From a virus (Duplodnaviria > Caudoviricetes), in IMG/VR virus record IMGVR_UViG_3300011868_000001, positions 160,001-224,000 of that record: a stretch of DNA of 64,000 nt; one strand, written 5' to 3'. The notes under the pieces were generated by a model. It saw only the letters and a program-made list of their open reading frames with translations. It was not told the DNA's origin and searched no databases. A program made the position numbers and the translations under genes. The first letter of the stretch is position 1, and each line of letters starts with the position of its first letter. This document shows positions 48,531 through 59,578 of the stretch, in pieces.

Positions 48531-49037
48531 ATGCTTAAGAAAATCGATTTCCAGTTCCAAGGAATCACCGAAGAACTGCTGATGGTGGACCAGTTTCTGT
48601 CAAGCCCCCATCCCTATGAACAGGGGTTAGTCAAGTATGTGTTCAACGATGCATCGTACGGGATCAACAGTCCTATGGAGTATCTTGAGCACAGTGACAA
48701 GCCAATCAAGGTCGAAGGCTATGAACGGTTGAATGCTGTTCTGTTTGGCGAGTGTCAACGCCTGGCGGCCTACTTCGGACACGCTGGGTATGTATCCTGT
48801 CACCTGTTCATCTCCCCTAAGGGATCAACGAGCTTCTCCATGCACACCGATCCGGATGATGTGGTCGTCTATGTTGTCAAAGGTGGCAAAGAGTTCGAAT
48901 CCATTGACCAGCTGGAATCTGTTAAAGCTGGTGATGTGTTATACATCCCGCGCAATCACCCACACCGTGCCATCAATACCGACAGTTCGCTTATGCTGAG
49001 CTTTGGGTTGGAGCTGTTTCTGGAGCAGAAGCTTTGA
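48531..49037 (+). CDS. JmjC/cupin-type 2OG-Fe(II) oxygenase (YcfD/ROX-like)
   Basis: HTDPDDV...KGGK...GDVLYIPRNHPHRA: HxD...H facial triad. Confidence 0.8.
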   Translation: MLKKIDFQFQGITEELLMVDQFLSSPHPYEQGLVKYVFNDASYGINSPMEYLEHSDKPIKVEGYERLNAVLFGECQRLAAYFGHAGYVSCHLFISPKGSTSFSMHTDPDDVVVYVVKGGKEFESIDQLESVKAGDVLYIPRNHPHRAINTDSSLMLSFGLELFLEQKL

Positions 49038-50074
49038 GCCTCAATAAAACCATTTACGTCAAAACCACAGGCACTTGTAACCTTGACTGTCAACACTGCT
49101 TTACCAACGGTAAGAACGGGGACAAGACCCAGTTTGACCCTGAGGTCACAGCAGAGTGGGTTAAGGCGTTTATGGCCAAGTACCCAACCGATACTCACTA
49201 CCACATGGAATTCCATGGCGGTGAGCCGTTCCTGGTGCCGTTGGAGAAGCTCAAGCGCTATGCCGATCAGTTTGTCGAGCACCCTCATGTGTCGATGTGT
49301 GCCAACAGCAACCTGACGTTCAAGTTGACAGATGCGCACATTGCGTTCATTCAGAAGTATTTCAACGGATACATTGGAACCAGTTGGGACCACTGGATTC
49401 GTTGGAGTAACGACAAGCAATTTCAGTTATGGAAACGTAATTTGGAATTGTTGAAAGATAATGGTGTGACCATTGCACTTAAGGCGTCGGTAAGTCGCCA
49501 ACTGCTGACGATGACACCTGACTGGTTCTTGGACCAGATGGAAGCCCTGGCAGTCGATGAGGTCTCACTGGAACGTCTGACCATGGACGGCAGTGCGCAA
49601 TGTAACGTCGGTATCTTCCCGGACAATGAAGAGCAAGACAACTGGTATCTAGCGCTGTATCAGCGCTATAAGGCTCGTCAAGGCCGCGTGCGCATCAAGA
49701 CACTCGACATCATTGAAGACAAGCTTAAAACCAATCGGGTCAAGGTCGATACCAACTGCCGCAACTGCGAGCAGAATCTGGTGACCATCAACTCGGACGG
49801 TTCGCTGTCCGGTTGTCCAAATGCAGCAGCAGCACTGCATCATGCGAAGTTGGAAGATGGGGTCGATGCATTCCTCAGCTCCGATGGACTGATTCAAGAG
49901 ATCACCTCAGAACTGACATGGGGTGACACCTGCCTTTCCTGCGATGTCTTTGACCTGTGTGGTGGCGATTGTCACCGCCTGCCGTGGCAGAATGGACGAT
50001 GCGGTGGGTTGAAAAATACCCTGCGTCATCTGTCAGGCCGGAATACACAATCCAATTTGATTTTGAAGGTGTGA
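49034..50074 (+). CDS. radical SAM/SPASM-like protein 1
   Basis: CNLDCQHC, HGGEP, C-terminal CRNC..GCP..CLSCDVFDLCGGDC..C. Confidence 0.9.
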   Translation: MSLNKTIYVKTTGTCNLDCQHCFTNGKNGDKTQFDPEVTAEWVKAFMAKYPTDTHYHMEFHGGEPFLVPLEKLKRYADQFVEHPHVSMCANSNLTFKLTDAHIAFIQKYFNGYIGTSWDHWIRWSNDKQFQLWKRNLELLKDNGVTIALKASVSRQLLTMTPDWFLDQMEALAVDEVSLERLTMDGSAQCNVGIFPDNEEQDNWYLALYQRYKARQGRVRIKTLDIIEDKLKTNRVKVDTNCRNCEQNLVTINSDGSLSGCPNAAAALHHAKLEDGVDAFLSSDGLIQEITSELTWGDTCLSCDVFDLCGGDCHRLPWQNGRCGGLKNTLRHLSGRNTQSNLILKV

Positions 50075-50075
50075 A

Positions 50076-50627
50076 ATGACCGAACAAATTACCCGTAACC
50101 GAATCGCGATGAATGCCAACAGCCGGATTCGCGATCGTTGCAACAGCGGTATCTCCTGGGGTACCAACAACTACCCGGCCAACTCTGATCCGGCCTGGTT
50201 CGGTGGCCCGACCAGCGGTCTGGCAGTATCCATGAGCCGCAATGACTTCTCCGGCGGTGAGCCGTCAGTATCGCAAGCGGTATCTGCCCTGCGTACATTC
50301 GCCAACCGCTTTGCTGCCATCCGCACCATCCGTATCCTGATCTACCGCAGCAAGTCGGGTTACTCCAGCGGTAACGGCAACATCCTTGAGTACGATGGTA
50401 CTGCGGTAGCCCACTCGGCGTACTCGTCTGGTGCTCATGCCAATAGCGTTGCGCTGTCGGCGATGCGTGAAGGTGTGGAGATGGACCTGGACACGCTGAA
50501 CAGTTCGCTGGACGAGCTGTGGAACGCCTACGTAGCCGGTGCCCGCAACACTGTGCTCAACCGCGAACGTGTCATCTGCCATACCAGCTGTCACAGCAAC
50601 TGTCACTGCGCCCGCGGGCGTCGTTGA
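50076..50627 (+). CDS. 183-aa protein with C-terminal CHxxCHxxCHC-ARGRR motif, candidate radical SAM substrate
   Basis: Ends ICHTSCHSNCHCARGRR; strongly biased codons; starts 1 nt after the rSAM 1 stop. Confidence 0.8.
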   Translation: MTEQITRNRIAMNANSRIRDRCNSGISWGTNNYPANSDPAWFGGPTSGLAVSMSRNDFSGGEPSVSQAVSALRTFANRFAAIRTIRILIYRSKSGYSSGNGNILEYDGTAVAHSAYSSGAHANSVALSAMREGVEMDLDTLNSSLDELWNAYVAGARNTVLNRERVICHTSCHSNCHCARGRR

Positions 50628-51417: not shown

Positions 51418-52453
51418 AGCCTACGTCGAGATCGATTCTCGCGTAACGCGCGACAATCCCTATATCTCGTTCGGCAAGCACGTCGGCTACGAGTACGTCC
51501 CGGTGGCACACGAGACTGCTGCTCAACAACTCACTTACGCCCAGTCCCTCGATGACCTGAGCAGTGATGAATTCAAAGCCGCCATGAATGCAGCGTTCAC
51601 CAGCAAGGAAAAGGTGTTCATCTTCGCCGATGGCAAAACCTACCTGCGTCTGTACGCCATGGTCGTCAAAGCGCTGCTTCCATCGGTGACTCTCGATGTG
51701 TTCCGTTGGATCTTCCTGTGCAAGAAGGCAACCTTCAACGTCTCCTTGCTGAACATCCGCAAGCCGGCGTCGAACATTCTGGATGAAGTCCAGATCAATG
51801 CCAAGACCATCGAAGCACTGTTCAAGCAAGAAGACCCGCATCAGCAGGCGATGAATGAACTCATGGCAGCGGCGCCCGATGAAGTTTCGCTGGAATGGCG
51901 TATCCTGCGTCTGCTGACCTGTGACCGGGTCGGGAAGCTGCCCAAGACGCTGCGCAACATCCTGCGGCGTATCGCCCTAGCCAATACCCACGACGCCCTC
52001 GACGTCTGGGGTCGGATGATTGCCGATCCGGGCATGTGGGAGTTTGCTGGGTGTGACATGGACACCCTGATGAACGGCAACAGTGTCTTTGAAGGCACCC
52101 TGAAGTTCCATTACCTGAACAACCCGATGTTCCTGCAACCTGGTGTGTTCGAAAACGAACCGACCAAGGACTGGATTGTTGGTCTGCTCAAGGAACTGGT
52201 GCAGGTGCTGGAGTTCTGTGACGAAGGTCCGACCGCCGGGCGTACTCGTCTGATCCTCGAGCTGATCAAAGACGAGACCAACCTGCAAGACCCGGAAGCT
52301 CTCAAAGCACGGGTTGTGACCATGTTCAAAGGCGCCAAGCGTTTGGCCCTGCCGAATGCCGATTCTGGCAAGTACGATGAAAACCTCATCCGCTACGTAT
52401 TGAACGAGGACGTCGAAGTCCTGCGTCAGTGCGTCAAAGGAGCGCAGTGGTAA
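51398..52453 (+). CDS. hypothetical protein of the rSAM island
   Basis: 351 aa; AAGGA RBS; coupled to the next gene by TAATG. Confidence 0.75.
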   Translation: MYHIRSKAYVEIDSRVTRDNPYISFGKHVGYEYVPVAHETAAQQLTYAQSLDDLSSDEFKAAMNAAFTSKEKVFIFADGKTYLRLYAMVVKALLPSVTLDVFRWIFLCKKATFNVSLLNIRKPASNILDEVQINAKTIEALFKQEDPHQQAMNELMAAAPDEVSLEWRILRLLTCDRVGKLPKTLRNILRRIALANTHDALDVWGRMIADPGMWEFAGCDMDTLMNGNSVFEGTLKFHYLNNPMFLQPGVFENEPTKDWIVGLLKELVQVLEFCDEGPTAGRTRLILELIKDETNLQDPEALKARVVTMFKGAKRLALPNADSGKYDENLIRYVLNEDVEVLRQCVKGAQW

Positions 52454-53448
52454 TGGAACTGATCCCCGTAGTGAACATCCTCCAAGAGAAGAAGGGTAAG
52501 TGGAAAGAAGCTCATCTGATTCTGTTTGAGTACTGTAATCTACGGTGTTCTTTCTGCCATCAAGACCACGACTCCAAGGTGGGGTTTGACACCATCGCTG
52601 AAAAGGTCGAGACGCTCATTGCCAACACCGACCCACGGCAACCGTACGTGGTGAACATGACCGGTGGTGAGCTGTTCTTGGACGAGTTCCCTGATGAGCT
52701 GTTCGAGCAGTACTACCAAGCAGGTAAACGTATCTTCGAACACTTCGACGATGCCTTGCTGGTACTGGGAACCAACCTGGTCTATCATCGGGTGGAGCGG
52801 TTGATCAAGCTGGTCAATCGACTCTCCACTCATGGTCGGGTCCAGATCGCCACGTCGTACGATCCAGCGGGTCGTTTTGATCGCGTCAGCCGGATGCTGT
52901 TCATACACAACCTGCAGCGCGTGAAGGAATACGTCAAGACCATCAACGTGGTGATCACCAAGCAGAACATCGAGGCGTTCCTGAGTGAAGACGAAGGGTA
53001 TGAAGTCGCCTGGATGTGCGAACACTTCGATGTGTACTTCGACCACTACATCCCCAGTCAGATGTATGAATACATCCAGCCGGATGAAGACCTGATCAGT
53101 CAGCTGTACCTCAAACTCAATGAGCGCTATCCGAACTCCTATCCGATCAAGGACTGGAAGAACAATGCGTTCAACGAGACCACCTGTCGCTCGACCAAGA
53201 TCGTCAACAAAGACGGGATTGTCAGCACCTGTTGGTCCGAGGCCGGTAAGAACGCCATCTTAGATGAAGCCGAAGGCCTTAAAGCCAAGGACGAAGCTGA
53301 GATGCGGTTCGTGGAGAAATACAACTGCTTCGCTTGCGAGTACTATTCTCGCTGCGGGATGCGTTGCTTCCTCCATCACTCGTTCATTGACGACGGAAAT
53401 GATGTCTGTCAGATCAAATTGATGTTCGATAAAGTGGTAGAGGCATAA
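52453..53448 (+). CDS. radical SAM/SPASM-like protein 2
   Basis: CNLRCSFC, TGGE, C-terminal CFACEYYSRCGMRC..C. Confidence 0.9.
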   Translation: MELIPVVNILQEKKGKWKEAHLILFEYCNLRCSFCHQDHDSKVGFDTIAEKVETLIANTDPRQPYVVNMTGGELFLDEFPDELFEQYYQAGKRIFEHFDDALLVLGTNLVYHRVERLIKLVNRLSTHGRVQIATSYDPAGRFDRVSRMLFIHNLQRVKEYVKTINVVITKQNIEAFLSEDEGYEVAWMCEHFDVYFDHYIPSQMYEYIQPDEDLISQLYLKLNERYPNSYPIKDWKNNAFNETTCRSTKIVNKDGIVSTCWSEAGKNAILDEAEGLKAKDEAEMRFVEKYNCFACEYYSRCGMRCFLHHSFIDDGNDVCQIKLMFDKVVEA

Positions 53449-53808: not shown

Positions 53809-54897
53809 GTGGACTTGATCCTGAAGCCAACCCAGAAATGTAACTTTAAGTGCACCTTCTGCTCGAGCACCTACTTGAGCGAAGACAATCGGGAAATTGT
53901 CGATCTGAGTCAGGTTGCACTGTTCATCAAGCGTTTCCCTGAGACGCGTACGGTGATTGTCAATGGGGGCGATCCGTTGATGATGCCGCCAGAGTACTAC
54001 TGGGACCTGATCGACATTCTCGATCAGTTGGGTTCTCAGGCCAGCATCTCCTTTACCACCAACCTCTGGCCGTTCTATAAGAAACCTGAATTGTGGGAAG
54101 AGCTGTTCAAACACCCCAGAATTGGCGTGACCACCTCGTTCCAATACGGTGAGGGGCGGCTTAAAGGTGACGGCACACCGTTGACCGAGGCTGAGTTCAT
54201 TGCCATGAGTGATCTGTTTCTGGAACGGATCGGCTATCGTCCTGATTTTATCGCAGTGATCGACAAGGACAATGAACACACTGTCCTTGATACGGTCCGG
54301 TTGGCTAAACGCCTAGGGGTGGAAGCCAAGGTCAACTATGCGGTGGCCTCAGGACCTGTGGTGGTCAACAAAGGCATCACCATGGGACATGCTGAAAGCA
54401 TGTACACCCAAGCTGACATGTATAAAGCCTACATCGAGATTTACGATGCAGGTCTCATGCAGTGGGAGTTCAACACCAAGCAGATGGTCAAGCGCATCAA
54501 GACGCAGAACACCATCTGCCCATTGAGCCGGGACTGCGACAGCGGGATTCGAGCCTTGCAACCTGGTGGCGGCTATTACTCCTGCGGGGCCTTTGGCGAT
54601 GACCTGAAGTATCCCATCGACTTTAAGAAAGAGATGGCCGGTGAATTCTTCCGTCCCTTGAGCAATCAAGAAGAGCTGTGGTCGATGAAGGAGGCCTGTA
54701 ACGAGTGTCCGATGTTCCTGATCTGCAATGGCTGTCGTAAGACCGTGACCGACACCAAGCGGTTAGGTCTGGCTGAGCATCACTGCAAGACCATGAAGAG
54801 CATTGCACCGCGGATCATCGAACTCAACGGGATGCAGGACTACCTGGTCCCCACCCCTTACGTGGACGAGTCTGTCCAGATCATCGCCCGAGGCTAA
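53809..54897 (+). CDS. radical SAM/SPASM-like protein 3
   Basis: CNFKCTFC, NGGDP, C-terminal CP...DC..SCG..CNECPMFLICNGC..C. Confidence 0.9.
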   Translation: MDLILKPTQKCNFKCTFCSSTYLSEDNREIVDLSQVALFIKRFPETRTVIVNGGDPLMMPPEYYWDLIDILDQLGSQASISFTTNLWPFYKKPELWEELFKHPRIGVTTSFQYGEGRLKGDGTPLTEAEFIAMSDLFLERIGYRPDFIAVIDKDNEHTVLDTVRLAKRLGVEAKVNYAVASGPVVVNKGITMGHAESMYTQADMYKAYIEIYDAGLMQWEFNTKQMVKRIKTQNTICPLSRDCDSGIRALQPGGGYYSCGAFGDDLKYPIDFKKEMAGEFFRPLSNQEELWSMKEACNECPMFLICNGCRKTVTDTKRLGLAEHHCKTMKSIAPRIIELNGMQDYLVPTPYVDESVQIIARG

Positions 54898-54899
54898 GC

Positions 54900-55142
54900 A
54901 TGGCGTATATCGATCCTTTTGAGCGCAGTCCGGTAGCCGACTCCCTGTCGGCTGAATCCGCCAAGCTCGATGAGCAGCTCAACGCAGTCTTCCAACGTGA
55001 AGCCGAGTTCTTTGAGCGTCAACTGGCCCATCGTAACATGCGTCTAAACTCACGGGGAGTGGCTCAATTGGAAATGAACCTACGGGATTTTCTGAACAAG
55101 GCCATTGCTGACATCGAAAAGGACCTAGACGATGCTGGCTAA
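54900..55142 (+). CDS. small helical hypothetical protein
   Basis: 80-aa ORF in operon. Confidence 0.7.
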   Translation: MAYIDPFERSPVADSLSAESAKLDEQLNAVFQREAEFFERQLAHRNMRLNSRGVAQLEMNLRDFLNKAIADIEKDLDDAG

Positions 55143-55187: not shown

Positions 55188-56192
55188 GTGGGCCGACCGA
55201 AAATCAACCTCAGCCTGAACCCCACTTATTATTGCAACCTGCGCTGTGAGTTCTGCTACCTCACGCCAGAGCAGCTGGGCGATAAGACCCGTCTGGAGCT
55301 GGATAAGTTCGAAGAAGTGCTGCTCGATATCTTGCAGCATTACGATGTCGGTCATGTCGACCTGTATGGCGGTGAAGTCCTCTTGTTGCCCCCGGAATAC
55401 CTGCGGGGTCTCAAAGACATCCTGCACACCTACGGGATCGATGATATTGTTCTGGTGACCAACCTCACCCTGACCAATGAGATCACCGAGGACTTGGACT
55501 TCGATCTGTCAGTGTCGTATGACTTCGGGGCACGGGAGATGCATGAGCGGGTGTTCAACAACCTGCTGGCATTGCCCAGACCGTACACCATCCTGACCCT
55601 GGCCAGCCGGAAGTTTCTCGATACGGTGAGTGTGGATGAATTCGTCCAGACCATGAACCTGTTGAGTGGGGCCAAGGACGTCGAGATCAAGCCGTACAGC
55701 GCGAATCAGGCTAACACGCATGCAGTGTACTACGATGAGTTCGAACGCTTCGTATGGGCGGTTATAGAGCATCCTGACAGGCAGTTCTACTTCGAGAATG
55801 AACGCCAGATCAAAGAAGCGGTTGAGGGCCAACGTAACGCCTTCAGCGATGACCACCTGTACATCACTCCGACTGGCCAATTGGCCGTTTTGGAGTTCGA
55901 TGCCAATGACAATGAGTTCTTCCTCCCGGTTGATGGAGTGGAAGGCTATCTTGCGTGGTGTGCAAAAGAAAAGCAGGCCGTGGCCCAGAACGGGCATTGC
56001 GGGACCTGTACCTACATGGGACATTGCCTCTCCGAACATTTGCGGGAGGTGAAAGACTTGTCCCATTCCTGTAACGGTTTTAAGGGGTTACTTGACCTAT
56101 GGACAACCCACACCTCGTCCAACACCGACAACGCCTGGAGATCACGCTTGATCTATTCCGAGGCTGTGCCAACCACTGCGCCGGATGCATGA
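55188..56192 (+). CDS. radical SAM protein 4
   Basis: CNLRCEFC, YGGE, C-terminal CGTCTYMGHC..SCNG. Confidence 0.9.
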   Translation: MGRPKINLSLNPTYYCNLRCEFCYLTPEQLGDKTRLELDKFEEVLLDILQHYDVGHVDLYGGEVLLLPPEYLRGLKDILHTYGIDDIVLVTNLTLTNEITEDLDFDLSVSYDFGAREMHERVFNNLLALPRPYTILTLASRKFLDTVSVDEFVQTMNLLSGAKDVEIKPYSANQANTHAVYYDEFERFVWAVIEHPDRQFYFENERQIKEAVEGQRNAFSDDHLYITPTGQLAVLEFDANDNEFFLPVDGVEGYLAWCAKEKQAVAQNGHCGTCTYMGHCLSEHLREVKDLSHSCNGFKGLLDLWTTHTSSNTDNAWRSRLIYSEAVPTTAPDA

Positions 56193-57127
56193 TCGACCGC
56201 ACCATCGGTGGCGATGTCGATGATCTGCCAGAACTCAAAGCCCTGATCGAGGAGATGACCGCCGCCGGTTATGTTGCTTTCGATCTGGGCGTTGGACCAA
56301 CCGACTACATGACGGCCGATAACAAGGACGAAGTCATGGTCCATCCGGTTTTCCAAGCCATGGCACAGTTGTTTCATCAGGTGACCTTCAATGCTGCATT
56401 CCTGGAAAAGGACCTGACGAAATACACCCGCATGTGTCAGGAGATCGATCAGTGCATCCCAGGCAAACCGATTCGTTTCCTGATCCCGGCTGCTCCCAGT
56501 TTCTTCAAGACCAATAAGTTCAGTGACATGATCAACATGAAACTGAACCATGTCAAAGACAGTCTGCACGATGCCTTCCTCAACGAGGCGGGCTTTGTGG
56601 TAAACTGTACCAAAGACACGGTCGACGATGAATTTGAAGAGATGCTGGTCAAAGGGTTCGATGTCGAGTTTCCGGTCGATAAGGATGACATCCTGAACAT
56701 CCCCTATGGTCGGGCACCGGTCAAAGACCTTCAGGTGGCGCAGCAGATTCAGCGCATGAGTTATCGCATCAGTCACTATTACAAATTGCTCAATGGTACC
56801 GACGAGCGCCGGAAGAATCCTGATCTGTGCCTCAATACCGGGACCATGACCAATCTGCTGTATACCGATGGCAAACTGTACTGGGTACCCTTCCTCAAGG
56901 ACGATTGTCCGTTCCTTGAAGATGCGTTTACCGTGCCCAAGCCCTGGACTATGGATAACCTGCTGGCGACGCGTCAGAAGGCGCTGGATGCCTCTCTGGA
57001 GTACCTCAAAGACACCCCCTGCATGCAGTGTCCTTACATCTCCAGTTGTGCTGAGAAAGGCATTACCAGCATCATGCAATTTATGGGTATCAAGGACTGT
57101 CTGGTAGGGCTTGACTATGCACAATGA
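56099..57127 (+). CDS. atypical radical SAM-like protein 5
   Basis: CANHCAGC; GPTD where GGEP is expected; C-terminal CMQCPYISSC..C. Confidence 0.75.
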   Translation: MDNPHLVQHRQRLEITLDLFRGCANHCAGCMIDRTIGGDVDDLPELKALIEEMTAAGYVAFDLGVGPTDYMTADNKDEVMVHPVFQAMAQLFHQVTFNAAFLEKDLTKYTRMCQEIDQCIPGKPIRFLIPAAPSFFKTNKFSDMINMKLNHVKDSLHDAFLNEAGFVVNCTKDTVDDEFEEMLVKGFDVEFPVDKDDILNIPYGRAPVKDLQVAQQIQRMSYRISHYYKLLNGTDERRKNPDLCLNTGTMTNLLYTDGKLYWVPFLKDDCPFLEDAFTVPKPWTMDNLLATRQKALDASLEYLKDTPCMQCPYISSCAEKGITSIMQFMGIKDCLVGLDYAQ

Positions 57128-58160
57128 ACGCGTCTCTCAAACCTTTAACCTTGGGCTTGAAGTGCTCAAGGGGTGTGGGTACAGTTGTTCGGGCTGTACG
57201 GTCGACAAGAACTTTGCCGACTTCGATGTACCAGAAGATGATGCCCGCGCTATCCTTGGTCTGCTCGCCGATCTTAAAGCGCAAGACTGGCGAATGCTCG
57301 AGCTTAAGATCGGGCCGACAGACATCACCAGCTCCGACAATGGCTTTGCCGTGTTGCAGCACCCGGTGATCAAAGAGATCGCCTCGTACTACAAGGTGCT
57401 GACCTTAAACGCTGCCATGCTCCATGACCGTAACCTGCCTGAGTTGGCAGAGCTGGTCGACGAGTTGATGCCGGGCAAGTACGTTAACATCGGCACCCCG
57501 TTTACCTTGAAGAACGTGGCCAATGAAAAGTACATGGCGATGATGAAAGAACGCTTGGCGTACTTCCAGAGTCTGTTGAAGAAAGCGTCTTTCACTCGCC
57601 TGTATGCCACGATAAACATTGAGGAAGAGAACCTTAAGCAGTTCAACCCTGAGTCGTTCAGTCTGATTCGTAACTATGACTTCGGCTCTGGGATCGATAA
57701 GGTGATTGAGTTTCCGTTTGTCAATGCTCGCCAAGGGTTTGACAACCTGCTCATTGCCGAACGCTTCAAGCGCGACATCAAGCAGTTTGCTGATTTTGCC
57801 AAGACGCGTATCAACACCCATGAGTTCGTGCCGTTGATCCCCGGTGTCAAAGAAGGCTATGAGTACACGTACCGTACCGGCAAACTGTACTCGACCATTG
57901 TGCTGGTTGAGAACCTGACGCTGTACAAAGACAAGTATGAGTTGGCAAGGCCATGGACGGGCGAGCGGCTACTCAAGCACCGAGAAGACGCCTACATCAA
58001 CAACCTGGTCAAGTACAGCGAACATCCCCAATGTGGGACGTGTTGTTTCTTGGATCATTGCGCCCGGTGCGACGTCCAACATCTGATGGAAGAGACGGGC
58101 AGTGACACCTGCCTGATCGAGATGCATAACCGCTGGGATCTGGCTCATGTAGAGCACTGA
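57117..58160 (+). CDS. atypical radical SAM-like protein 6
   Basis: CGYSCSGC; GPTD; C-terminal CGTCCFLDHCARC..C; paralog of 56099-57127. Confidence 0.75.
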   Translation: MHNERVSQTFNLGLEVLKGCGYSCSGCTVDKNFADFDVPEDDARAILGLLADLKAQDWRMLELKIGPTDITSSDNGFAVLQHPVIKEIASYYKVLTLNAAMLHDRNLPELAELVDELMPGKYVNIGTPFTLKNVANEKYMAMMKERLAYFQSLLKKASFTRLYATINIEEENLKQFNPESFSLIRNYDFGSGIDKVIEFPFVNARQGFDNLLIAERFKRDIKQFADFAKTRINTHEFVPLIPGVKEGYEYTYRTGKLYSTIVLVENLTLYKDKYELARPWTGERLLKHREDAYINNLVKYSEHPQCGTCCFLDHCARCDVQHLMEETGSDTCLIEMHNRWDLAHVEH

Positions 58161-58173
58161 TGAGGAACCGTCA

Positions 58174-58608
58174 ATGGACTCGTTATACACTATCGTCGAC
58201 AACGTGGCAATTCCTGAGTGGCTTGTCGATGCTGCAATGTGCGAACCGAATAAAGGGTCCATTGACACGCCCGAGATTTGGAGCTTTGTAGAGAAACAGC
58301 TCCTGCCGCTGGTCATGCGTCAGACTCAGGCACAACCGACCCTTTATGTATCGTCGAATCACGTGCACATCAGTGCAGCGGGCCTGACCCCGCACGATCA
58401 TCTGCCCAACGCATTTACGTCAGTGCTTTATCTGGTAGATGCCGAAGGACGGTTGATCATCGACCCCGATGGGATCAATGAACGGGTCAAACCGGCGGCT
58501 GGTCGATTCGTCATTTTCAAAGGTGAAACCATTCATGCGGTGGAGAAATCGCCGCAGAATGAATTGCGTATTTCGCTGGTGAGCAACTATGAATACCCTT
58601 CCGTATAA
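58174..58608 (+). CDS. 2OG-Fe(II) oxygenase-like protein
   Basis: PHDH...SVLYL...GRFVIFKGETIHAV...RISLVSN. Confidence 0.75.
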   Translation: MDSLYTIVDNVAIPEWLVDAAMCEPNKGSIDTPEIWSFVEKQLLPLVMRQTQAQPTLYVSSNHVHISAAGLTPHDHLPNAFTSVLYLVDAEGRLIIDPDGINERVKPAAGRFVIFKGETIHAVEKSPQNELRISLVSNYEYPSV

Positions 58609-59020
58609 GGCCTTCCAACGACTCTATGACGAGCTGGTGCAAGAACACAGCGACGCATTTGAGTTAATGGAGTTTGTCATTGATGATGAACTCGTCAACA
58701 ACGCCATGAAGTATTTCGAGGCCGCGACCTTTCCGCTGATCTATCCGGCCAAGAGCTATGCAGTGGCGATCATCTATGCCCACAAGCTCAGTGAGATTTA
58801 TGGTCTGGATATCCACACGGTCCTCGATGACAAGGACCTGTTCCTTGGCCAAGACCCGTACTTTGTCCCGTACAGTGAAGACCCGGCGACGTACGAGGCC
58901 ATCCTTCAGCGCTTAAAGCACAAGCCCAACTGGCTGGAATCGGGGTGGGCTCCGAAAAGCGTTCAATACTGCTTGCTCGAATGCACCGAGGCAGGCATCC
59001 AATCATTGACGGAGGTGTAA
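58589..59020 (+). CDS. hypothetical protein of the rSAM island
   Basis: 143-aa ORF overlapping the upstream gene and abutting the next. Confidence 0.75.
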   Translation: MNTLPYKAFQRLYDELVQEHSDAFELMEFVIDDELVNNAMKYFEAATFPLIYPAKSYAVAIIYAHKLSEIYGLDIHTVLDDKDLFLGQDPYFVPYSEDPATYEAILQRLKHKPNWLESGWAPKSVQYCLLECTEAGIQSLTEV

Positions 59021-59578
59021 ATGGACACGCACTTGTTGTGGGCGACGCCGGTGGCGCGGATCAATGTGGCTGATCAGTTCGACATGGCGGCCTGGGCTGA
59101 TGAAGTCTTTGCCATGTACACCATGACCAATGGCGAAGACGACCGGCAGCGGTTCATCGACCCGGATATCTTCCCCGTGATCCTGAAGATGCGTGATGAA
59201 GTCATCACCCCGGCGGTCAATGCCTTCTGCAAGGAACACTTCGGACAAGACATGGAGAAATTCTATGTCGAGACCAATGGCAAGTGGATCGTTGAAGGCG
59301 AAGGCCTCTACGCCCATCTGCATCCTGGCAGCGTGCTTTCGGCTATCTGCTATCCAGGTGACTCAGCCAATGGGTTGAACATGTTCGACCCCAGGCTCAA
59401 TGCCATGCGAGGCTACCCGAAACGGATGCGTAATCATCACTTTGCCAACTTCCGTATCAGCCCTAAGCAGGGGGATGTCTGGATCTTCCCGAGCTACGCG
59501 CAGCACAGTGTCTCGCACGTGACCGAGGAAGTCCGGCTGTCGCTGCTGCACGAATACTACATGACCGATAACCTGTAA
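59021..59578 (+). CDS. 2OG-Fe(II) oxygenase-like protein (HxH type)
   Basis: AHLHPGSVLSAICY...FDPR...GDVWIFPSYAQHSV...RLSL; GGAGG RBS. Confidence 0.8.
   Translation: MDTHLLWATPVARINVADQFDMAAWADEVFAMYTMTNGEDDRQRFIDPDIFPVILKMRDEVITPAVNAFCKEHFGQDMEKFYVETNGKWIVEGEGLYAHLHPGSVLSAICYPGDSANGLNMFDPRLNAMRGYPKRMRNHHFANFRISPKQGDVWIFPSYAQHSVSHVTEEVRLSLLHEYYMTDNL

Follow-up and report, generated by a model that had tools for sequence, protein, structure and literature searches.

Two GPTD-motif proteins of a jumbo-phage-like virus represent an unnamed radical SAM/SPASM subfamily encoded in a conserved gene module

Genes A and B are an adjacent pair within a window of 64,000 bases, the whole stretch of DNA analysed here, which covers bases 160001-224000 of a 253,747-base IMG/VR virus record that is 96% complete. 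Judged by sequence and by predicted structure, their products are paralogs that belong to an ancient, unnamed subfamily of radical S-adenosylmethionine (SAM)/SPASM proteins, named here the GPTD family after a motif found in both. The reading favoured here, with moderate confidence, is that A and B would be SAM-cleaving radical SAM maturases with two clusters each, acting in the multi-enzyme maturation of a protein from the same gene module, probably on the tail of the product of a nearby gene, h183. Among cultured phages, only Pseudomonas phage pPa_SNUABM_DT01 (referred to below as DT01), which is of the phiKZ-like jumbo type, is related at the level of DNA. The paper on this phage merely lists “six radical SAM genes” (PMC8541153). 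Eight radical SAM genes within a structural cluster of a related Aeromonas phage were termed “highly unusual” (PMC12390700). Papers on these phages use only the labels “radical SAM proteins” or “hypothetical proteins” for such genes and call their number unusual (PMC8541153, PMC12390700, PMC11898562).

Protein A carries the cluster motif CANHCAGC (C23, C27 and C30, with G29 before the third Cys), GPTD at residues 66-69, DGKLYW at 257-262 and PWT at 282-284. Its C-terminal region contains CMQCPYISSC (308-317) and, 17 residues further, C334; C308, C311, C317 and C334 are the predicted ligands of an auxiliary cluster. Protein B has the corresponding motifs CGYSCSGC, GPTD, TGKLY, PWT and CGTCCFLDHC, again with a Cys 17 residues further. 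A first-pass annotation of this DNA had described GCxxxCxGC, GPTD, shared GKLY and PWT motifs and CxxC-x5-C tails in both proteins, and all of these were recovered on the plus-strand open reading frames (ORFs). It had also stated that the other four radical SAM proteins of the window have an aromatic residue or His before the third Cys, which agrees with the sequences read in them (CNLDCQHC, CNLRCSFC, CNFKCTFC and CNLRCEFC). At the position of GPTD, these four canonical proteins, rS1-rS4, carry GGE or GGD. A and B are 24% identical over 337 residues (E 2e-32), which identifies them as paralogs.

The start codons of both genes differ from those of the longest or previously called forms. The IMG gene call for A begins at Met31 and drops the Cys triad; since every full-length homolog conserves, in frame, the 30 residues ahead of Met31, the long form is the real one. 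It is preceded by AAGGGG approximately 10 nt upstream of its ATG at 56099. The longest ORF of B starts at a TTG (57111) and encodes 349 aa, and the most likely start is the ATG at 57117, since it fits the N-termini of homologs and is preceded by GGTAGGG. With this ATG, the first 11 nt of B are shared with the end of A. On its other side, A shares its first 94 nt with the 3' end of rS4 (56099-56192); the rS4 homolog in DT01 is shorter, and the overlap there is 4 nt.

Fold and profile comparisons place A and B in the radical SAM superfamily and in none of its named families. AlphaFold2 models built from family alignments reached a predicted local distance difference test score of 89 for A and 83 for B, and both contain a predicted partial (beta/alpha)6 TIM barrel with six strand-helix units. 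The G-C-x3-C-x-G-C motif lies in the loop that follows strand 1, and the GPTD motif closes strand 2, the place at which canonical members have the GGE motif that contacts the SAM amino group. Foldseek and VIA-align put both proteins among radical SAM/SPASM enzymes that modify peptides or proteins. The best structural match is anSMEcpe, with Z 14.9 over 291 residues for A and Z 13.6 over 300 residues for B; ChlB, SuiB, TigE, SkfB, CteB and EpeE come next, and the top matches are all radical SAM enzymes. In profile-profile comparison with hhalign, the GPTD family aligned with the rS2 family over its full length (294 columns, probability 94.4%, E 8.5e-8) and, at a probability of 94.3%, with rS4 in its C-terminal domain, while comparisons with a single rS1, or with the rS1 and rS3 families, were weak; rS2 is the closest canonical relative. 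No NCBIfam family, including those of anSME (TIGR03942), PapB and HxsB/HxsC, matched A or B at E<=0.1, unlike rS1-rS4, which gave many weak NCBIfam matches. The sole PHROG match was phrog_31457, whose function is unannotated (E 2.3e-7 for A and 4.6e-6 for B). Searches of PDB sequences with the family profiles gave only marginal matches at the cluster loop (MiaB, E 0.02; GDGT-MAS, E 0.006). An ESM Atlas feature search returned viral hypothetical clusters and a cluster named “GeoRSP system SPASM domain protein” at scores of 0.94-0.95 with few shared features, which serves as a lead only.

The C-terminal domain is predicted to be a reduced SPASM domain with one auxiliary cluster. Its conserved cysteines throughout the GPTD family are CX2CX5C and one distal Cys only, a set that corresponds to the ligands of auxiliary cluster II (AuxII) in anSME. 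The seven-Cys SPASM motif (TIGR04085/PF13186), which ligates two auxiliary [4Fe-4S] clusters, was not found in A or B, and one member among 61 gave a weak TIGR04085 match. The hairpin-Gly cysteines of rS1-rS3 (Gx4C and the upstream cysteines; AuxI) are absent from A, B and rS4. In the predicted structures there is a beta-hairpin at 251-262 with a conserved Gly, and alignments to anSME, SuiB and CteB reach the C-terminus.

The unusual motifs of A and B are shared by a large family. Among 1.84 billion representatives, a profile combining the families of A and B matched 199 clusters at 50% identity (E<=0.001); 90 of these had E<=1e-30, and nearly all were 330-390 aa long. Almost all full-length matches have CxxxCxGC (the Gly being rarely Asp, Asn or Ala), GPTD or a near variant, and CxxCx5C. 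These motifs are invariant or nearly so over approximately 150 representatives that share about 20% identity, and are therefore not a product of chance. In a 61-member alignment of similar diversity (about 20% identity), C23, C27, C30, G66, D69, C308, C311, C317 and C334 are invariant, and G22, G29, T68, N75, N169 and R205 are at least 90% conserved. The GPTD motif itself can be written [G/S/A]-P-T-[D/E]; variants such as SPTD and APTE are rare, and the acid is kept in all members. Ratios of nonsynonymous to synonymous substitution (dN/dS) against close relatives are 0.02-0.06 for A, 0.03-0.12 for B and 0.05-0.08 for the canonical rS4, with dS close to saturation for the more distant pairs. 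By these measures of conservation, the unusual motifs are a family signature and not decay. The first-pass annotation had offered a new radical SAM subfamily as one of its options, and this option is the one borne out by the radical SAM/SPASM fold, the profile match to rS2, the lack of any match at curated thresholds and the family's own invariant signature. The family that A and B fall into is not a characterised one, and the barrel fold is present in the predictions.

GPTD genes were found, among the loci examined, only inside one conserved module and in 1-6 tandem copies. Related loci were retrieved with the sub-clade alignments A2 and A6; the single-protein queries P0230 and P0145 returned none. 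In 32 DT01-like viral loci the order is fixed: fibre gene, cupin, rS1, h183, h292, h351, rS2, rS3, rS4, A, B, (ox1), h143, ox2 and, further along, a transglycosylase (Table 1). The order rS4-A-B is kept in all 32. Identity across these loci is 57-99% for A; in most of those with A at 57-74%, B reaches only 33-54%. The cultured Ralstonia and Burkholderia phages RSL2, RSF1, FLC and S13 have the module with one GPTD gene. A distant sub-clade alignment retrieved more viral contigs, nine contigs of Bacteriovoracia metagenome-assembled genomes (MAGs; up to 369 kb) and one Rhodobacteraceae bin. According to hidden Markov models of the module proteins, rS1-rS4, h183, h292 and h143 co-occur in these distant loci, the cupin and ox2 are present in most, and 2-6 tandem GPTD genes are found wherever the locus is complete. 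All 89 full-length tandem-array copies from the distant loci have the Cys triad and the Gly before its third Cys, and the fourth auxiliary Cys lies 17 residues past CxxCx5C, or 19 in one paralog class. Two Bacteriovoracia loci have chromosomal flanks (cytochrome b/c, Ada methyltransferase and ABC exporters). Most distant loci preserve the tail of h183, CHxxCHxxCHxSRGRR, which has just two CH units in some Bacteriovoracia. An extra GPTD-like paralog is found in Bacteriovoracia (L058 4319-5368, L059 6430-7428 and L061 9020-9925, all on the minus strand); it has neither the N-terminal Cys triad nor GPTD, and retains CxxCx5C with the Cys 17 residues later.

Under the favoured reading, each GPTD protein would bind two [4Fe-4S] clusters, and SAM would be bound and cleaved at the N-terminal one. 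The invariant acid of GPTD would take over from the GGE glutamate, and adenine would be contacted, as in NrdG, by the backbone of the Gly that precedes the third Cys. Each protein may then perform one radical step in the maturation of a module-encoded protein, of which the likeliest candidate is h183 with its Cys/His-rich C-terminal tail; the four canonical radical SAM/SPASM enzymes, the cupin and the 2-oxoglutarate (2OG) oxygenases would be partners, and the paralogs, 1-6 per genome, could carry out related steps, each at its own site or on its own substrate. The cluster loop of A and B has a precedent in a SAM-cleaving enzyme. E. coli NrdG, translated from the MG1655 genome, reads SGCVHECPGC and so agrees with A and B both in the Gly ahead of the third Cys and in the Gly at the start of the motif. 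NrdG cleaves SAM when activating class III ribonucleotide reductase. Residues at the GGE position also vary among SAM-cleaving enzymes, and TokK, which has D-A-N there, still cleaves SAM (PMC9204698). The motifs of A and B therefore do not entail a loss of cleavage.

Several observations weigh against this reading. The Pfam Radical_SAM model (PF04055) scores A at 14.5 bits, below the gathering threshold of 29.5, and does not match B, and in the AlphaFold2 model of B the cluster loop has low confidence. Throughout the family, the hydrophobic contact to adenine is lost. The acid of GPTD aligns with the Glu of GGE at the same position or 1-2 residues off in MAFFT and two hhalign alignments, so its register is uncertain by that amount. 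The Glu that TsrM has at the GGE position is a ligand of the unique iron, blocking SAM and preventing radical chemistry (PMC9204698), a precedent that keeps a non-radical reading alive. The choice of h183 as substrate is drawn solely from gene neighbourhood, and the number of GPTD copies has no simple relation to the number of CH repeats or of h183 copies, some of the loci being incomplete.

The most substantial alternative is that A and B bind Fe-S clusters without cleaving SAM and serve the canonical enzymes as electron-transfer partners, scaffolds or substrate holders, in one form with the GPTD acid on the unique iron as in TsrM. The first-pass annotation had offered, as one of two options drawn from the motifs, that the pair would be a non-cleaving scaffold or electron-transfer subunits, which does not follow given the CxGC loop of NrdG, the D-A-N of TokK and an acid that is always kept. 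The alternative itself is somewhat unlikely in our judgement. It would account for the substitution, throughout the family, of GGE as well as of the aromatic residue, and for a copy number that varies while rS1-rS4 are fixed at one copy each; TsrM provides it with a case in which the acid at the GGE position ligates the cluster and abolishes radical chemistry (PMC9204698), and the triad-less Bacteriovoracia paralogs, which keep the auxiliary motif, suggest that a non-radical role is viable within the family. Against these stand the triad, its flanking glycines and the barrel-end residues N75, N169 and R205, conserved about as strictly as in enzymes, as well as the cleavage of SAM by NrdG and TokK. 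A pure electron carrier, moreover, would need no barrel of approximately 250 residues held under a dN/dS of about 0.05. Unlikely, and a little more so, is the reading in which the GPTD proteins make up a new functional class of the radical SAM fold. Such proteins might hold the acid on the unique iron for non-radical or cluster-transfer chemistry, or might cleave SAM and act on the CH-repeat...SRGRR tail by an undescribed reaction such as Cys-His cross-linking or assembly of a metal site; the fibres or particles with which jumbo phages and Bacteriovoracia attack Gram-negative cells would require the product.

In another alternative, A and B would form an obligate heterodimer with one catalytic and one structural subunit. 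The two genes are adjacent and in fixed order in all of the 32 DT01-like loci, and their 11-nt overlap suggests coupled translation. However, GPTD genes number one in phages of the RSF1 type and 3, 4, 5 or 6 in other lineages, and the full set of conserved residues is present in both A and B, so that neither resembles a dead subunit. In the family tree (FastTree) the A and B clades are sisters within a small clade (support 86), which suggests that the duplication occurred within the DT01-like lineage. Compared with a related locus, L005, the window is 96-99% identical in DNA over A, 58-73% over B and ox1 (57127-58626) and 98% over h143, with sharp breakpoints at the gene boundaries. By this pattern, recombination has exchanged B and ox1 as a single cassette and left A in place, which speaks against a closely co-adapted A-B interface. 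Prediction of an A and B complex gave a score of 0.00, which counts neither for nor against binding. The heterodimer suggested by the first-pass annotation thus finds no support in the single copies of RSF1/RSL2-type phages, the 3-6 copies elsewhere or the exchange of B without A, and we consider it quite improbable. It is far less probable still that A and B are NrdG-like activases that place a glycyl radical on a partner enzyme. They have the GCxxxCxGC loop in common with NrdG, and weak matches to the NrdG model TIGR02491 occur in 7 of the 61 family members, and three members match the related NF008335 (best E 9e-6). Yet A and B themselves do not match TIGR02491, searches of the phage genome, which is 96% complete, found no Gly_radical, NRDD/NrdD or NrdG, and the proteins are twice the size of NrdG, have a SPASM-like domain and match peptide-modifying SPASM enzymes in structure; this identity was rejected. 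Likewise rejected were functionless, decaying duplicates of canonical radical SAM genes. Weak or absent Pfam scores and the evolution of B at about twice the rate of A might be read in that way, but dN/dS values of 0.02-0.12, a signature kept in 199 clusters and an occurrence in both phages and bacteria refute it, leaving it barely credible.

Among known systems, anSMEcpe (PDB 4K36-4K39; TIGR03942) is the closest in structure, matching A and B over the barrel and the C-terminal domain with the same order of elements. It is the archetypal protein-modifying enzyme of the radical SAM/SPASM type and acts on a protein or peptide substrate, as proposed for A and B, but it has AuxI ligands, has CxΦC and GGE instead of CxGC and GPTD, and gives no significant sequence match. 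The epimerase EpeE/YydG (PDB 8AI1-8AI6; TIGR04078) is the top Foldseek match for both proteins and is similar in size. EpeE has one radical SAM cluster, one auxiliary cluster and a reduced SPASM-type domain. It differs from A and B in its canonical SAM motifs and genomic context, is 10-13% identical to them, and its hidden Markov model matches neither. NrdG (TIGR02491) shares the G-C-x3-C-x-G-C cluster loop, whereas it is 154 aa long, has SGGDP, lacks a SPASM-like domain and needs a glycyl-radical partner, none of which was found in the phage. In the HXS system several radical SAM enzymes (HxsB/HxsC) with two Fe-S motifs each jointly mature HxsA, which has short His-containing repeats, and a stable HxsB-HxsC complex was not detected (PMC13128918). 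HXS (HxsB/HxsC/HxsD, TIGR03976-03979) thus resembles the present module in its multiple radical SAM maturases and in the repeat-bearing target proposed here, but it is a bacterial defence system, whereas the module comprises approximately 15 genes in phages and predatory bacteria, and A and B have no HxsB/HxsC match. TsrM and TokK show that other residues are tolerated at the GGE position, with cleavage of SAM kept in TokK and lost in TsrM (PMC9204698); both are cobalamin-dependent, whereas A and B have no cobalamin domain, and no relation beyond the superfamily was detected.

The GPTD family is deep, with at least 199 clusters at 50% identity, its own signature at the cluster loop and the SAM site, and one predicted auxiliary cluster. 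The module that encodes it is common to nucleus-forming jumbo phages and to the chromosomes of predatory Bacteriovoracia. If the GPTD proteins are active, they would extend the known sequence limits of SAM binding and would mark a pathway of protein maturation in which as many as ten radical SAM enzymes take part; if inactive, they would represent a branch of the radical SAM fold that is conserved but non-radical. Either way, mutants of the triad and of the Asp provide a clean handle for dissecting the module in tractable phages, e.g. DT01 and JPTI55.

Table 1. Genes of the module in the window, with positions counted from the first base of the window.
Feature	Position	Strand	Description
Cupin/JmjC-like oxygenase	48531..49037	+	Head of module; Pfam; kept in distant loci
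rS1	49034..50074	+	Canonical radical SAM/SPASM; Pfam, NCBIfam, PHROG
h183	50076..50627	+	Protein ending in CHTSCHSNCHCARGRR; candidate substrate of the module
rS2	52429..53448	+	Canonical radical SAM/SPASM; hhalign match to GPTD family
rS3	53809..54897	+	Canonical radical SAM/SPASM; most conserved module member (E to 1e-159 in distant loci)
rS4	55188..56192	+	Canonical radical SAM (CNLRCEFC, GGE), directly upstream of A
Gene A	56099..57127	+	342 aa; GPTD-family radical SAM/SPASM-like protein; from ORF list
Gene B	57117..58160	+	347 aa from ATG 57117; GPTD-family paralog of A, faster-evolving
ox1	58174..58608	+	Small 2OG-Fe(II) oxygenase-like protein; Pfam
h143 and ox2 (2OG-Fe(II)_Oxy_5)	58589..59578	+	Conserved module members downstream of B

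The five Radical_SAM matches of the phage (rS1-rS4, and A below the cut-off) all lie inside the module, B having no Pfam match; at E<0.01, PF04055 matched just 12 of the 61 family members. An 80-aa ORF that follows rS3 (54877-55126 of the window) has no alignment with L005, with 6% identity in the 250-base bin, and a homolog in 2 of the 32 related loci. In two Bacteriovoracia loci (L061 14235-15422 and L063 1047-2147, both on the minus strand) the module adjoins a protein that combines the N-terminal methylation motif of type IV pilins with Peptidase_S74, an endosialidase or tail-fibre chaperone domain, so that the module has fibre-like neighbours in predatory bacteria and in phages alike. Two ABC exporter genes (ABC_membrane and ABC_tran) lie beside the module in the Bacteriovorax MAG contig L061 (669-4062, minus strand), which hints at the export of a product. 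Further variation concerns the content of the module. Two putative dihydrofolate reductase genes are inserted between rS2 and rS3 in Ralstonia phage RSF1 (L002 11806-12922). In one viral lineage (L043-L046) h292 is present twice, the second copy immediately before a four-gene GPTD array, and in another (L047-L057) a tandem duplicate of h183 is followed by 5-6 GPTD genes.

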